The notes: generated from the sequence alone by a model not told the origin. Shown: positions 14,197-28,941, counted from the first letter of the stretch. The stretch: 42,027 bases of DNA from Clostridia bacterium (GCA_017547545.1 JAFYPJ010000106.1:1-42027); one strand, 5' to 3'. Numbers and translations are program-made.

Positions 14197-14817
14197 ATGA
14201 GCTTACATTCATTTCTTCGCACATTGTTTGCACCCCTAATGCGAGTTGTATTCCGTATACACACCCACGGTGCAGAAAACATACCCTCAGAAGGTGCTCT
14301 TATGGTTTGTTCAAACCATATTTGTGCTGCCGATGTTATATTTATTTCGGCTTCGGTCAAAAAAAGAGAGATCCGTTACATGGCAAAGGCAGAGGTTTTC
14401 AGAATACCCGTTTTAAAACACTTCCTTACCGCTATGGGAGCTTTTCCTATCAAAAGAGGCGAGGGTGATGTAGGGGCTATCAAAAAAACAATAAAGCTGC
14501 TGCGCAACGGAGAAACGGTGGGAATATTCCCTCAGGGGACAAGATGCGCCGGAAGGCATCCGAGAGAATCTGAGGTCAAGCCGGGTGCAGGTATGATAGC
14601 ATGGCGTGCACATTCGGATGTGCTTCCCGTTGCTATAATTACCAAAAACTACAAATTTGCTTTGTTTCGCCGTATAGATGTTATAATAGGCAAGCCTGTT
14701 TCTTATAATGACCTTGGATTTGAAAAGGGAAATCATGAAGAGCAGGTTGCGGCTACCAATATAATTTTTGATGAAATTTTAAAACTTCACGATAAAGGAG
14801 TACCCCCAAAATGTTAG
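14197..14817 (+). CDS. plsC: 1-acyl-sn-glycerol-3-phosphate acyltransferase
   Basis: NHICAAD (HxxxxD), MAKAE, IFPQGTR; ATG 14197 preferred over TTG 14191 on SD spacing. Confidence 0.9.
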   Translation: MSLHSFLRTLFAPLMRVVFRIHTHGAENIPSEGALMVCSNHICAADVIFISASVKKREIRYMAKAEVFRIPVLKHFLTAMGAFPIKRGEGDVGAIKKTIKLLRNGETVGIFPQGTRCAGRHPRESEVKPGAGMIAWRAHSDVLPVAIITKNYKFALFRRIDVIIGKPVSYNDLGFEKGNHEEQVAATNIIFDEILKLHDKGVPPKC

Positions 14818-16811
14818 TAGAAGTTGCCTCTCTTGCAGGCTTTTGCTTTGGTGTGGAAAGGGCGGTAGAATCGGTTGAAAAGCTTTTGGCCGAGAACAAC
14901 GCAAAGATCTATACTCTTGGAAAACTTATCCACAATCCTACTATAGTATCTTCCTTTGAAAAGCAGGGAGTTGAAATAATTGAAGCTTCGGATATAGACA
15001 GGGTGTTTGAGCAAACAAATAAAAACAATCCCTGTGTTATAGTTATCCGTGCTCACGGGGCAATCAAAGAGATAAGTGACAAGCTTACTGCATATGCAGC
15101 ACAAAATCCCTATTTCAAGATCTGCGATATGACATGTCCCCATGTTAAAAAAATACACAAGATAGCAGAACAACATTCTAAGGATGCCGACCTGACTCTG
15201 ATTTTCGGAAACATAGGACACCCCGAAGTACAGGGAATTTGTTCCTATGTTGAGGGTGATTATCTCGTTTTTGAGAAATCGGAAGACCTCGATTATGGCA
15301 AAATGACCAATAAAAAGCTGTTATGTGTGTCTCAAACGACACAAAAATTATCGGAATGGGAAAAAAGTCAAAAAAATCTCAAAAAGGTCTGTACAAATCC
15401 ATTTATTTTTGATACAATATGTAGTGTTACCGAAAATCGGCAGGAAGAAGTTGATGCTCTCTCAAAAAGAGTAGACTTGATGTTGGTTATTGGCGGGAAG
15501 GACAGCTCTAATACAAATAAGCTGTATGAAATTGCCCGTAAAAATCAGCCGAATACTTTTTTTGTAGAAGATGCCAACGATATTCCCGATATCAGGTTAA
15601 CTCCCCACGCTAAGGTGGGAATAGCTGCAGGAGCTTCTACTCCCGGCAGCATAATTAAGGAGGTAAAGAAGAAAATGAGTGTAAAAGAACTCACAACCGG
15701 CGAAAACTTCGCAGAATTACTTGATGCATCATTCAAAACTTTAAATACAGGAGATACCGTTACCGGAACAGTATTGTCAGTTACTGACGCTGAAGTTCAT
15801 GTAGACCTTGGTGCTAAGGTTACAGGAATTATCACATCTAACGACATTATCGACCCCATGGTTAAGCTTTCCGACCTTTACAAGGTTGGCGATACCGTAA
15901 CAGCTGTTGCAGTTCGCGTAAGTGACGTTGACGGTGTGGCAACATTAAGCCGCCGCCGTATTGAAGCTTCTGAAAAGTGGGAAAGCATTGTTGCAGCTTA
16001 CAACGAAGGTACTATCCTTGAGGGTAAGATTACAGAGATCGTTCGCGGCGGCGCAATCATCATTCTCAATTCCGTTAAGGTATTTATCCCCGCATCCCAG
16101 TCCGGTCTTGGAAAGGACGCTGATTTAAGCGTACTTCAGGGTACCGTACATAAGGTTAAGATCATTGACATCAACGAACAGAGAAAGCGTGCAGTTGCTT
16201 CTATCCGCGTTGTTGTTCGTGAAGAAAAGAAAGCTGCTGAAGCAGAGTTCTGGGCAACCCTTGAAAAGGATAAGAAGTTTACAGGTAAGGTTAAGTCCCT
16301 TACAAGCTACGGTGCTTTTGTAAATCTTGGTCCTGTTGACGGTATGGTTCACTTAACAGAGCTTTCCTGGAAGCGTATCAAGAATCCCGCAGAAGTTGTT
16401 TCTGTTGGCGATACTCTTGATGTATTTGTTCTTGATTTTGATGTTGAAAAGAAGAGAATTTCTCTTGGTCACAAAACCGAAGAAACAAATCCTTGGACTC
16501 TCTTCACCAATCAGTATTCTGTAGGTGATGTAGCAGCTGTTAAGATAGTTAGCATGATGCCCTTCGGTGCATTTGCTGAAGTTATCCCCGGCGCAGATGG
16601 TCTTATTCACATTTCTCAGATCGCAAACAAGAAGATCGGTAAGCCTGCTGATGTTCTTGAAATCGGCCAGGTAGTTGATGCTAAGATCACTGAGATCGAC
16701 GAAGAAAATCACAAGATCAGCCTTTCTATGAGAGCTCTCCTTGAAGAAGAGGAAGAAATTGAAGTAGAAGTTGTTGAAGAAGCAGAAGCGGTTGAAGAAG
16801 ACGCTGAATAA
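14811..16811 (+). CDS. ispH: Bifunctional 4-hydroxy-3-methylbut-2-enyl diphosphate reductase / 30S ribosomal protein S1 (IspH-RpsA fusion)
   Basis: IspH motifs GFCFGV, IHNP, RAHG, TCPHV, HPEV, DTIC, SSNT, AGASTP (aa 1-288), followed by four S1 repeats and an acidic tail. Confidence 0.95.
   Translation: MLVEVASLAGFCFGVERAVESVEKLLAENNAKIYTLGKLIHNPTIVSSFEKQGVEIIEASDIDRVFEQTNKNNPCVIVIRAHGAIKEISDKLTAYAAQNPYFKICDMTCPHVKKIHKIAEQHSKDADLTLIFGNIGHPEVQGICSYVEGDYLVFEKSEDLDYGKMTNKKLLCVSQTTQKLSEWEKSQKNLKKVCTNPFIFDTICSVTENRQEEVDALSKRVDLMLVIGGKDSSNTNKLYEIARKNQPNTFFVEDANDIPDIRLTPHAKVGIAAGASTPGSIIKEVKKKMSVKELTTGENFAELLDASFKTLNTGDTVTGTVLSVTDAEVHVDLGAKVTGIITSNDIIDPMVKLSDLYKVGDTVTAVAVRVSDVDGVATLSRRRIEASEKWESIVAAYNEGTILEGKITEIVRGGAIIILNSVKVFIPASQSGLGKDADLSVLQGTVHKVKIIDINEQRKRAVASIRVVVREEKKAAEAEFWATLEKDKKFTGKVKSLTSYGAFVNLGPVDGMVHLTELSWKRIKNPAEVVSVGDTLDVFVLDFDVEKKRISLGHKTEETNPWTLFTNQYSVGDVAAVKIVSMMPFGAFAEVIPGADGLIHISQIANKKIGKPADVLEIGQVVDAKITEIDEENHKISLSMRALLEEEEEIEVEVVEEAEAVEEDAE
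15361..15418 (+). promoter_or_regulatory. Putative internal sigma-A promoter inside ispH driving the S1 moiety
   Basis: A-tracts 15361-15385, TGTACA (15390-15395), 17 bp spacer, TG-n-TACAAT (15410-15418). Confidence 0.55.
15657..15677 (+). promoter_or_regulatory. Internal Shine-Dalgarno and in-frame ATG (Met289) at the IspH/S1 boundary
   Basis: AAGGAGGT at 15657-15664; ATG at 15675 is in frame (864 nt from 14811). Confidence 0.65.
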
Positions 16812-22180: not shown

Positions 22181-22593
22181 TTATTTGTTTGTATATTCTC
22201 TTTTAACCCTTAATCGGTTAATAGCTCTTGCCATTCTCACCTGAGCTGCATAATAATCCTGAATACTTCTCTTTTGGAGAATTTCTTCTTCGGCTTCCTC
22301 TGCGGCTCGGCGCACAATATTTTCATCTATTTCCTCAGGATACTCCGCTGTATCCACAAGCAAAAGCACATGGTTATTTTCCACCTTTGCAATTCCCTGC
22401 GAAACTGCGGCAATTATTCTTTCGCCCGAGGGAACAGTGAATTTAAGTGTACCGGGAACAATGGCGCATATAACATTGCTATGCTTTGCCTGAATTCCGT
22501 ACTGCCCCTGTGTTGTGGGTATAACAAGAGAGGTGCAATCCCCTTCATAAAAGGGTTTATCCGAAGCAAGAACCTCTAATTTGAAGCTGTTCA

Positions 22594-22594
<1 letters not shown>
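22181..22594 (-). CDS. atpC: F-type ATP synthase epsilon subunit
   Basis: IPTTQGQYGIQAKH, GIAKV, AE.PEEID, RAINRLRV; last gene of the operon. Confidence 0.93.
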
Positions 22595-24901
<2,307 letters not shown>

Positions 24902-24902
<1 letters not shown>

Positions 24903-26626
24903 TATCCTCGCTCCTGCAAATATTTCTTAGCTATCTTGATAATTTCCTCTTTATCCTCATCCAAAAGAATTCCTGTATCTTCAAGACGGGTTGTAATATC
25001 AAAATGACTTTCTTCAAATAATGCCAACAGCTCCAAGATAACATCTTTCACCTGATCCTCTGGAACATCCTGTAATGTATGACTTAAAACTACTATAAGA
25101 ATAATAACCTGCTCATACTGCTTATAAGGCTTGTACTGATCCTGCTTGAGCATCTGCATAAGTCCCTGACCGTAGGTGAGCTGGCGTTTGGTGGCTTCAT
25201 CAAGATCACTTGCGAACTGGGTAAACACTTCCATTTCCCTGTACTGTGCAAGGTCAAGACGAATTGCACCCGCCGCCTTTTTCATTGCCTTTGTTTGCGC
25301 ATCACCGCCAACACGGGATACAGAAAGACCAACATTAACCGCAGGACGCTGACCCGCAAAAAAGAGATCACTTTCGAGGAAGATCTGACCGTCGGTTATA
25401 GAAATTATATTTGTAGGAATATATGCGGAAACATCTCCCGCCTGAGTTTCAACTATGGGAAGCGCAGTCATACTGCCTCCCCCTCTTTTTTCATTAAGAT
25501 GTGCGCTTCTCTCCAATAATCTTGAATGGAGATAGAAAACATCACCCGGATAAGCCTCTCTGCCCGGTGCTCTTTCAAGCAAAAGGCTCAGAGAACGGTA
25601 TGCAATAGCATGCTTTGAAAGATCATCGTAAACTATAAGCACATCCTTGCCCTTTTCCATGAAGTATTCACCCAAAGCACAACCTGCATAGGGTGCAATA
25701 TACTGCAAGGGTGCCGGATCTGAGGCGGATGCGTTAACAACAACGGTATAGTCCATTGCTCCGTGATTACGGAAATTCTGTACCAGCTGTGCTACAGAGC
25801 TTGCCTTTTGACCTATGGTAACATAAATGCAGATTACATCCTTGCCTTTCTGATTCAGAACTGTATCAATTGCAATAGCACTTTTACCCGTTTGACGGTC
25901 TCCGATTATCAGCTCACGCTGCCCCCTGCCTATAGGAAACATGGAATCTATTGCAAGAATACCAGTTTCAAGCGGAGTATCAACAGACTGACGGTCTATT
26001 ATACCGGGAGCGGGATTTTCCAAGGAACGGTATTCTTCATAGTATATCTTTCCCTTGCCGTCTATAGCTTTACCAAGAGCATTTACAACTCTGCCAAGGT
26101 ACTCATCGCCAACACCTATACCTGCAACCTTACCTGTTCTTCTTACAATACTGCCTTCAACTATTTCAGAATCATCTCCGAACAGCATACAGCCTATTTC
26201 ATTGGGACGAAGCTCCTGAGCCATTCCCCGTATACCGGATGAAAATACAAGTATCTCACCGTAGCAAACATTATCAAGTCCCGATACGGTGGCAATACCA
26301 TCTCCAACGGTAATAACTCTTCCCTCTTCATAGGCAACTGCATCAGGATTCCACTTTTCCATGGCATCCTTTAAAAGAGGTATAATGTTATCTTCTTTAA
26401 ATTTAAGCTTATGAAGTGCATCCTTTAACTGAAGTAATCTACCCTCGTTACTCCAATCATACACCTCGCTTCCAACCTTGAGCCTGAAGCTTCCTTCGGA
26501 AAGGTCGGTCTGTTTCCAGATTATAGAATAACTTTCCCCGTATTTCTTTTCAAGGAATTCCACAAAGCGTTTTTCCTGAATTTTGCTTGGGGGAGTATTG
26601 GAGTAAAGCAACGCTTTATTACTCAT
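24902..26626 (-). CDS. atpA: F-type ATP synthase alpha subunit with N-terminal delta(C-terminal domain)-like extension
   Basis: [37 protein letters not shown]; start ATG 26626 (SD GGGTGA, overlapping the atpF end) gives 574 aa, about 70 aa longer at the N-terminus than usual. Confidence 0.93.
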
Positions 26627-27125: not shown

Positions 27126-27491
27126 TTAAAGTACAAAGATTATGAGAATTGCAATAACAAGGGCATAAATGATTGCGGTTTCAACAAAAACCAACCCCAA
27201 CATAAGTGTTGTTCTTATTTTACCCTCTGCTTCGGGCTGGCGCGCAATACCGTCTACAGATTTGGTGATAGCCATACCCATAGCAAAAGCACCAACAGCC
27301 GCTGCCAAGCCAACTACTATTGCAGCAGCCCACGCCTTTGCGTTTATAACACCGCCATCGGTTTCTTCTACGGCACCTTCCTCTGCAACTGCTTCGGCTG
27401 CGGGAACTTCCTCGGAAGCAAATACGGGCATTGCCAGGCAAAACATCATCATTACTAAAACTAAAGCAATACAAATACCTTTGATTTTCAT
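27126..27491 (-). CDS. atpE: F-type ATP synthase c subunit with N-terminal signal peptide
   Basis: ARQPE loop and FVETAIIY; start ATG 27491 after SD GGAGG; N-terminal K-rich/hydrophobic segment ending AMPVFA. Confidence 0.92.
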
Positions 27492-27514
27492 TTTTACATC
27501 CTCCAAATGTTTTT

Positions 27515-28482: not shown

Positions 28483-28890
28483 TTATTGCTTTTTCGTTTT
28501 TTTATATGCTTTTAACCCTTTTGGCTTTTTTGCTTTTTTTCTTATACTCAGAACCGGTGCAGCAATACAGAGTCCTATAGACGAAACATAAGGTAACCAT
28601 AAACGGGAAAATGAGCCGTTTTTTAGTATAAGAGATACCCCGTAAGATATAAGTAAAAATATTCCTGCAAAAATAAGACTGTATACAAGGGGTTTACTTT
28701 CGGCATTGCGCCCTATTACAAAACAAGGTATAAAAGCAGAAACCAGGAATGTTATCCTTGCATACAATTGAAGATTTTTGGTACTGTCTTCACTTTTTGA
28801 TGCAATAAAAGCAAAAACAAAAAGAAGCACCGCCATAGTAATAATACAAATGAGCAGTGCTTTTAAAAGCAACTTGAAATTATTGTTCAT
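28483..28890 (-). CDS. TIGR04086/YrzE-like (DUF3792) membrane protein
   Basis: Four hydrophobic segments and a Lys-rich tail; follows yajC as in other Bacillota; start ATG 28890 after GGAG. Confidence 0.6.
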   Translation of the reverse strand: MNNNFKLLLKALLICIITMAVLLFVFAFIASKSEDSTKNLQLYARITFLVSAFIPCFVIGRNAESKPLVYSLIFAGIFLLISYGVSLILKNGSFSRLWLPYVSSIGLCIAAPVLSIRKKAKKPKGLKAYKKTKKQ

Positions 28891-28941
28891 ATCATCTGCT
28901 CCCGAAATATTGTAATACAATATATTCAAAGCAGAACAATT

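Follow-up and report, generated by a model that had tools for sequence, protein, structure and literature searches.

A natural fusion of the delta C-terminal domain to ATP synthase subunit alpha in a Clostridia bacterium, a candidate counterpart of an engineered multi-stalk enzyme

Our analysis of a 42,027-nucleotide stretch of DNA from a Clostridia bacterium (GCA_017547545.1 JAFYPJ010000106.1:1-42027, here called the window) showed that its minus strand encodes an entire F-type atp operon (a, c, b, alpha, gamma, beta and epsilon, in this order by open reading frame (ORF) calls and Pfam), whose alpha gene atpA begins with the delta/OSCP C-terminal domain (deltaC). The gene is best explained as a natural deltaDeltaN-alpha fusion in which deltaC replaces atpH, the gene for delta, and to this explanation as a whole, including the consequence that several peripheral stalks may attach to one enzyme, we give a probability of about 0.6. 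That the architecture is real and serves as stator attachment is close to certain; that the enzyme has more than one stalk in vivo appears slightly favoured over the opposite, by analogy with an engineered enzyme.

The architecture and the reading given to it have both been published before, therefore no new question is opened here and the window represents a further natural case. New is a clade of F-ATPases without the delta N-terminal domain in one Oscillospiraceae-level family, which occurs in three forms: with a stand-alone deltaC gene, with deltaC fused to alpha, and with a b-like segment, deltaC and alpha in one protein (b'-deltaC-alpha).

The N-terminal extension of alpha

The alpha frame opens with an ATG at 26626 which overlaps the end of atpF (...AATGAGTAA) and has an AAAGGG 8 nt upstream, and no gene lies between b and alpha. 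A b-deltaC-alpha fusion in the window was considered and rejected because the b ORF is separate and ends in TAA. In the orthologue at locus L027, which belongs to a congeneric genome, Met1 is the only Met retained (VAQM against VMQM). The whole protein matches solved alpha chains with an E-value of 1.7e-194, the gamma and beta genes adjoin, and the core contains ATP-synt_ab_N (PF02874, aa 101-165), ATP-synt_ab (PF00006, aa 222-437, E 4.1e-82) and ATP-synt_ab_C (PF00306, aa 444-568), as expected of an F1 alpha subunit. In the search of PDB chains with the whole protein, residue 4 of the solved alpha chain aligns to query residue 77, therefore the extension comprises about 73 residues. This agrees with the first-pass annotation, made from the sequence alone, which had placed the alpha start about 70 aa early and had quoted two peptides that are indeed present at aa 41-67 and aa 78-89.

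Pfam OSCP (PF00213) aligns aa 5-71 to profile positions 105-172 of 172 (E 0.012, 16.1 bits), and the relatives of the protein score above the Pfam cut-off (23.8-48.4 bits). To obtain a more sensitive profile, 15 homologous N-termini from the window and the genomes of its relatives were aligned (alignment A2) and searched against the PDB. At E<=1, 29 of the 30 distinct sequences matched are delta, OSCP or b-delta chains, in each case matched in the C-terminal domain; among them is a chain whose deposited name is 'Multifunctional fusion protein', matched where the b-delta chains are. The best match is chain 9jc1_I (E 4.9e-13, query 8-104 to chain 4-102), and the delta subunits of PS3 (6n2y_I, residues 106-175, E 3.4e-10) and E. 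coli (residues 104-176, E 1.4e-09) are also found. At the level of profiles the match to delta/OSCP is far beyond chance.

Structure prediction points in the same direction. The AlphaFold2 model of aa 1-100 has a mean predicted local distance difference test score (pLDDT) of 78.7, with 87-93 over aa 1-60, and consists of four strands and two helices (E3-9, H15-29, E33-39, E47-51, E54-57, H60-73). When this model was compared with solved structures by Foldseek, ranks 1-40 were all ATP synthase delta, OSCP or b-delta chains, six of them with E<=0.001, and the first unrelated match came at rank 41 with a probability of 0.44. The model of the full-length protein, built from a 12-sequence alignment (A1), is poor (mean pLDDT 49.8, predicted template modelling score 0.36) and was not used for the fold search, its deltaC part (pLDDT 81-90) agreeing with the first model. 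The extension begins at OSCP profile position ~102-105, right at the end of atpF, so that the delta N-domain is missing; with no N-terminal helical-bundle domain, the protein does not qualify as a full-length delta (AtpH). Profile search, predicted fold and operon position thus confirm the extension as the delta/OSCP C-terminal domain. Behind it, the protein passes in frame into the normal alpha N-terminal helix, as seen in the alignment to solved chains; I81, I82, P83, L84, W92 and P94 are invariant across 12 homologues, and a helix is predicted at aa 81-91 with low confidence. The delta/OSCP C-terminal identity and the succeeding helix that the first-pass annotation had read from the sequence have therefore both been recovered.

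The extension is well conserved. Eleven database homologues of 571-581 aa show 49-84% identity over aa 1-95, and 17 positions of the extension are invariant in their alignment (L7, Y8, S9, P13, Q17, F21, L25, Y29, W37, F47, L49, D57, W58, G62, R63, Q66 and K68). Comparison with the L027 orthologue gives ratios of nonsynonymous to synonymous substitution rates (dN/dS) of 0.04 over aa 1-78 and 0.047 over the alpha core, both rough values as dS is saturated. The extension is thus conserved and, by these ratios, under purifying selection, and it reads as coding sequence, as the earlier annotation had presumed.

Because the window's own assembly (G000) is a fragmented metagenome-assembled genome (MAG) of 147 contigs, one may suspect that a truncated, functionless remnant of atpH became attached to atpA through misassembly or the loss of a stop codon. 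Conservation and purifying selection speak against such an artefact or decaying gene, as do the many invariant residues, and the same in-frame fusion recurs in 15 other genomes of the family that were inspected and in 237 database clusters. An assembly artefact was therefore rejected, and the probability that remains for this explanation as a whole is negligible. In detail, the 237 clusters were found among longer proteins with the A2 profile at E<=1e-5 (8000 candidates scored); among the 120 clusters listed, 118 are of 580-605 aa and all 120 have a precomputed PF00213 match. Where sources are named, they are Clostridia or Eubacteriales MAGs, and the proteins are labelled just 'F0F1 ATP synthase subunit alpha'. 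A phmmer search of 50% representatives gave 186 clusters at E<=0.001, with the N-terminal part matched in 148 of the 150 listed; most of these clusters are contig-end fragments whose lengths say little on architecture. In a survey of the phylum with the A2 profile, 311 of 401 genomes contained a match, mostly canonical deltas read through the stop into alpha; besides G000, uninterrupted frames of at least 590 aa occur in 12 of the 150 survey rows listed. No RNA sequencing run is listed as containing the stretch, and the sole run that does contain it may be the source sample.

A further explanation concerns the composition of the enzyme rather than the gene. An internal start at Met89 (ATG 26362) could supply short alpha copies, so that deltaC would be present on some alphas only, and the AAGGA 4 nt before this ATG, which had given rise to the proposal, is present as stated. 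However, methionine is found at this position in only 1 of 12 aligned homologues, the others having V, I or L, and a protein begun at Met89 would lack the larger part of the alpha N-terminal helix, which is conserved (I81-L84). The internal start was rejected on account of the missing conservation, and a mixture of long and short alphas is very improbable.

No separate delta was detected that could take the place of the fused domain. There is no atpH between atpF and atpA, and in G000, which is 80.3% complete, the fused protein is the only OSCP match and no other delta was found. The only ATP-synt_ab matches in G000 are the alpha and beta of the window, which makes this the only rotary ATPase found there. 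A congener, G098, is 97% complete and has an alpha 91% identical to that of the window; there too the fused protein gives the sole OSCP match, a single alpha/beta pair is present and no separate atpH was found. A search for related loci with the single protein returned one locus, on the congener's contig, and among named records the nearest is that of a MAG called Oscillospiraceae bacterium. The absence of both the delta N-domain and atpH, on which the earlier interpretation depended, hence stands for the operon, G000 and G098. Its corollary that fused alpha and intact atpH should not occur together agrees with what was found in these two genomes and fails for two others of the family, G090 and G024, which have the fused operon plus a separate canonical operon with its own full-length delta and ordinary alpha. 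Fused and canonical types can coexist, as distinct enzymes.

Published relatives and the number of stalks

The window protein shows what characterises the deltaDeltaN-alpha class, that is deltaC in frame with the alpha N-terminus via a short linker, no N-domain, and no separate delta found. The class is known from the work of Ueno et al. (Nat Commun 2025, PMC12229609), in which residues 2-104 of the Bacillus PS3 delta were deleted and residues 105-178 fused via a short linker to alpha without its Met. Electron cryomicroscopy shows as many as three b2 stalks on the engineered enzyme, an a-subunit accompanying each, and the average is two stalks; the enzyme contains 2.2x a and 1.8x b compared with wild type, these being averages by sodium dodecyl sulphate polyacrylamide gel electrophoresis. 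Its H+/ATP ratio is 5.8, and it makes ATP at a proton-motive force (pmf) too low for the wild type.

The chain of this enzyme, 9JC1, which is the best PDB match of the N-terminal profile, is like the window protein in having deltaC alone, a short linker and alpha without Met, with no separate delta, and in its length of 580 aa against 574 aa here (the entry contains three such chains, deposited as 'ATP synthase delta subunit, ATP synthase subunit alpha'). It is collinear with the whole protein (query 4-558 to chain 5-563), and all others among the 60 alpha chains listed start at query residue 72 or later. The two differ in that the window protein is natural and not designed, in a deltaC identity of 20% (Foldseek alignment), and in the native linker (KLKFKED region) instead of GSGGS; in addition, the window operon has kept the C-terminal domain of epsilon, and its c subunit has a signal-peptide-like extension.

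Natural fusions have also been reported. The Discussion of PMC12229609 mentions one with the N-domain missing in the Acidaminococcus fermentans operon and names UniProt G4Q3K6 and A0A1I2C5T3 as well, and a preprint (bioRxiv 10.64898/2026.10.01.756066) describes delta-alpha fusions retaining just the C-terminal part of delta, together with short deltas from a number of phyla, its 'Bacilliota' among them. The question raised at first pass, whether the architecture had already been described, is thereby answered by both papers. Compared by their descriptions, these cases share the gene architecture and the proposed meaning (several stalks, low pmf) with the window; the lineage differs, the window belonging to an Oscillospiraceae-level family of Clostridia. 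In our literature search, to which subscription-only papers and supplements were not visible, no paper was found in which a natural fusion enzyme had been purified; what it yielded was the work of Ueno et al. with its preprint, the Chloroflexus paper cited below and the 2026 preprint.

A different natural solution is found in Chloroflexus aurantiacus, whose F1Fo has two stalks, two a-subunits and a separate short delta (PMC12002316, PNAS 2025). This structure (9ITJ) is the second-best PDB match of the profile (E 3e-10). Like the multi-stalk enzyme proposed here, it occurs naturally, is F-type and has more than a single stalk and a-subunit, and its deltaC, a sheet of four strands with two helices, matches our model in fold. 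In Chloroflexus, however, delta is a separate protein of 157 aa whose four-helix N-domain dimerises and sets the number of stalks at two, whereas here the N-domain is absent and the link to alpha is covalent. Fused stator parts are also known from mycobacterial AtpH (PDB 7JG5 chain d, with a homologous deltaC, E 6.5e-07) and from the b subunit of N-ATPases, which both join delta to b, whereas here delta is joined to alpha and b is a separate protein of 162 aa. An assignment to the N-ATPases was rejected, as the order here is a-c-b-alpha-gamma-beta-epsilon and the 162-aa b has no OSCP match. For N-ATPases we take the operon order to be beta-epsilon-Q-R-a-c-b-alpha-gamma, with the delta-like segment on b.

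In the structures cited, delta lies with its N-domain on the three-fold axis, where this domain holds two of the alpha N-termini; its C-domain holds the third one and also the b2 C-termini. The N-domain, which would normally limit the enzyme to one stalk, is absent here, and with deltaC on every alpha each alpha3beta3 would therefore offer three equivalent covalent docking sites for b2, as the first-pass annotation had concluded. Its further suggestion that several peripheral stalks could form has been borne out for the engineered PS3 enzyme (9JC1, PMC12229609) and would extend to the native enzyme by analogy. The latter may assemble two or three b2-a stators, with each a-subunit acting on the one c-ring, in which case the ions per turn would equal the c-ring size multiplied by the number of a-subunits, and with more ions per turn a lower ion-motive force would be needed for ATP synthesis.

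An alternative is that only one stalk is present, a or b being limiting or assembly being ordered, with one b2-a stator per complex and two idle deltaC domains. The fusion would then merely tether deltaC to F1 and offset the loss of the N-domain, and the ion/ATP ratio would be ordinary. The single b gene, whose stop overlaps the alpha start, would suit this alternative, and particles with a single stalk are common in the engineered enzyme (PMC12229609). In addition, some relatives have a stand-alone deltaC, which shows that the fusion is dispensable within the clade. On the other hand, the engineered equivalent averaged two stalks without other changes (PMC12229609), other relatives have a b-like anchor on every alpha and could hardly leave two membrane helices unused, and no feature was found here that breaks the three-fold symmetry. 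We therefore regard a single stalk as a rather unlikely alternative to the multi-stalk fusion enzyme.

Several points nevertheless weigh against the latter. Taken alone, the OSCP score of the window protein, 16.1 bits, is below the curated cut-off of 22.3, and as G000 is just 80% complete, the absence of atpH rests partly on G098. With a single b gene whose stop overlaps the alpha start, coupled translation near 1:1 would leave b short of the 2:1 ratio of b to alpha that three stalks need. Pumping by the engineered enzyme was poorer and stalks came off while it was being prepared, suggesting that the assembly of several stalks is costly (PMC12229609). The full-length model (mean pLDDT 49.8) is silent on the packing of three deltaC domains on the crown, and native multi-stalk assembly is drawn from analogy. 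Finally, the predicted binding of deltaC to b2 speaks for docking but is weakly supported. In the complex prediction, deltaC-alpha(1-100) with two b(95-162) scored 0.48 against 0.00 for the best of 3 controls, the runs agreeing in at least 76% of contacts with a partner pLDDT of at least 57. Among 80 solved complexes, 58 reach the mark applied, and among 110 mismatched pairs 2 do so; with a score of 0.60 or below, only 7 of the 80 reach it, along with both of the passing mismatches. As delta-b complexes have already been solved, the pass may be due to memory.

The host is a gut anaerobe, and G000 carries Rnf genes (two Rnf-Nqr family matches side by side). A high ion/ATP ratio would be in keeping with ATP being made from a small gradient built by Rnf, and just as much with a fermenter pumping ions cheaply. 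Whether the sole ATP synthase of this gut Oscillospiraceae lineage is an obligate multi-stator F-type machine, with two or three b2-a units per c-ring, and thus the natural counterpart of the enzyme engineered in 2025, appears to us evenly balanced. If so, the ion/ATP ratio would be two to three times c/3, allowing ATP to be made from a small Rnf gradient or more ions to be pumped per ATP, and the clade without the delta N-domain would make up a class of low-voltage ATP synthases that is widespread among anaerobes and has gone unrecognised.

The ions-per-ATP ratio has long been held to depend on c-ring size only. The engineering work of 2025 (PMC12229609) and the Chloroflexus structure (PMC12002316) have introduced the number of stators as a second variable, and natural deltaDeltaN-alpha fusions are its predicted natural users. 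To these the window adds a case from a gut anaerobe with Rnf in which no rotary ATPase was found apart from the fused enzyme, which belongs to a large conserved clade that is hidden in the databases under plain 'subunit alpha'. A first structure of a native multi-stalk F-ATPase could reasonably be sought in this lineage, which also bears on models of how energy is conserved close to the thermodynamic limit.

F-ATPases without the delta N-domain in the family

For a survey of the GTDB family, 121 genomes including G000 were searched with PF00213, and 31 loci were inspected. A full-length delta is present in 38 genomes, the deltaC-alpha fusion (alpha of 574-620 aa) in 16, a stand-alone deltaC gene in 9 (frames of 77-134 aa, e.g. 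72 and 79 aa at OSCP profile positions 103-171) and an alpha of 736-791 aa in 7. Full-length delta plus one short form are both present in 5 genomes, and the other 56 have no credible OSCP match. The stand-alone deltaC gene (72-134 aa) sits between b and an alpha of ordinary length, and its product lacks both the N-domain and a covalent link to F1.

The alphas of 736-791 aa begin with a b-type membrane helix and stalk (ATP-synt_B, aa 3-93), followed by deltaC and then alpha; ATP-synt_B is above the cut-off in 2 of the 3 tested, and OSCP positions 97-172 as well as the alpha domains were found. Beside this triple fusion there are a separate b gene of 138 aa and a plain c gene of 76 aa. Each alpha would thus have its own membrane anchor, three per F1, and as judged from this domain order the triple fusion would argue for three stalks.

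A quick maximum-likelihood tree was calculated from 43 alpha cores with the beta of the window as outgroup, which has a very long branch, so that the root is uncertain. The 31 alphas whose operons lack the delta N-domain all fall into a single clade with a support of 100 in the Shimodaira-Hasegawa-like approximate likelihood ratio test (SH-aLRT), apart from 11 of the 12 canonical alphas. Within it, the window alpha lies inside a clade of 14 fused forms (SH-aLRT 95), the b'-deltaC-alpha forms make up a clade of their own (SH-aLRT 100), and the fused form L028 nests among the stand-alone deltaC operons. Given this placement and the tree, alpha fusion would have arisen at least twice after the loss of the N-domain, subject to the uncertain root.

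The type of F-ATPase also differs within one GTDB genus. G000 and G098 have deltaC-alpha as their only rotary ATPase, and G002 has b'-deltaC-alpha together with a V/A-type pair, which suggests operon replacement between close relatives.

Operon features and neighbouring genes

The features of the window and the loci of relatives with other forms are listed below. The DUF3792 membrane protein occupies the slot upstream of atpB that is usual for atpI, and it is kept there in L027 with 51% identity. The C-terminal motif of atpF around F151 is kept in 14 orthologues.

Table 1. Positions of the features in the window and of short-delta loci in relatives
Feature	Position	Strand	Remarks
DUF3792 membrane protein	28483..28929	-	Pfam PF12670, E 3.3e-12
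atpB, a subunit, 274 aa	27515..28339	-	Pfam ATP-synt_A, E 1.5e-16
atpE, c subunit	27126..27506	-	Pfam ATP-synt_C at aa 60-122; likely start ATG of MKIKG at 27491
atpF, single b subunit, 162 aa	26619..27107	-	Pfam ATP-synt_B, E 8.7e-23
atpA, fused alpha, 574 aa	24902..26626	-	ORF from ATG 26626, stop 24902-24904
deltaC domain, aa 1-76	26399..26626	-	delta/OSCP C-terminal domain, b-binding; four strands, two helices
Short linker (KLKFKED region) and alpha N-terminal helix, aa 77-100	26327..26398	-	contains Met89 (26360-26362)
F1 alpha core, aa 101-574	24905..26326	-	beta-barrel, nucleotide-binding and C-terminal domains
atpG, gamma	23994..24902	-	Pfam ATP-synt, E 3e-90
atpD, beta	22594..23997	-	Pfam ATP-synt_ab, E 3.1e-75
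atpC, epsilon with C-terminal helical domain	22181..22594	-	Pfam ATP-synt_DE_N and ATP-synt_DE
666-aa ORF	14811-16808	+	IspH/LytB joined to four S1 RNA-binding domains
Two neighbouring ORFs, 314 and 407 aa	34994-37146	-	no Pfam match at E<=1e-5
b'-deltaC-alpha	L014:2107-4317	-	
b'-deltaC-alpha	L015:2312-4687	-	
b'-deltaC-alpha	L016:2959-5187	+	
b'-deltaC-alpha	L017:2660-4879	+	
b'-deltaC-alpha	L018:2116-4332	-	
b'-deltaC-alpha	L019:2899-5139	+	
b'-deltaC-alpha	L031		cut by contig end
Stand-alone deltaC	L020 (G072)		
Stand-alone deltaC	L021 (G035)		
Stand-alone deltaC	L022 (G113)		
Stand-alone deltaC	L023 (G091)		
Stand-alone deltaC	L024:2990-3229	-	
Stand-alone deltaC	L038:5505-5723	-	
Stand-alone deltaC	L039-L041		

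The c subunit of the window has a signal-peptide-like N-terminal extension followed by an acidic linker. In operons of the window type, the c genes have an N-terminal extension of 45-110 aa before the usual hairpin, which looks like a signal peptide with a hydrophobic stretch ending ...PVFA/SE or ...AFA and continues into an acidic linker of low complexity. It was seen in the window and in L026, L027, L029, L030, L032-L037, L042, L020 and L021, and comparison of the c subunits showed it to be missing in the triple-fusion operons, L025 and L028. The sequence of the ion site in c is VETAIIY. By eye, E-T is kept, with Y five residues on and without the helix-1 Gln that we take to be typical of Na+ binders, and we make no claim on ion specificity from this motif.

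The rest of the window contains chromosomal housekeeping genes (EF-P, PriA, guanylate and cytidylate kinases, ArgRS, a PcrA/UvrD helicase and others), therefore the operon is not located on an obvious mobile element. The fusion of IspH/LytB with S1 domains is presumably one that is already annotated in Clostridia.

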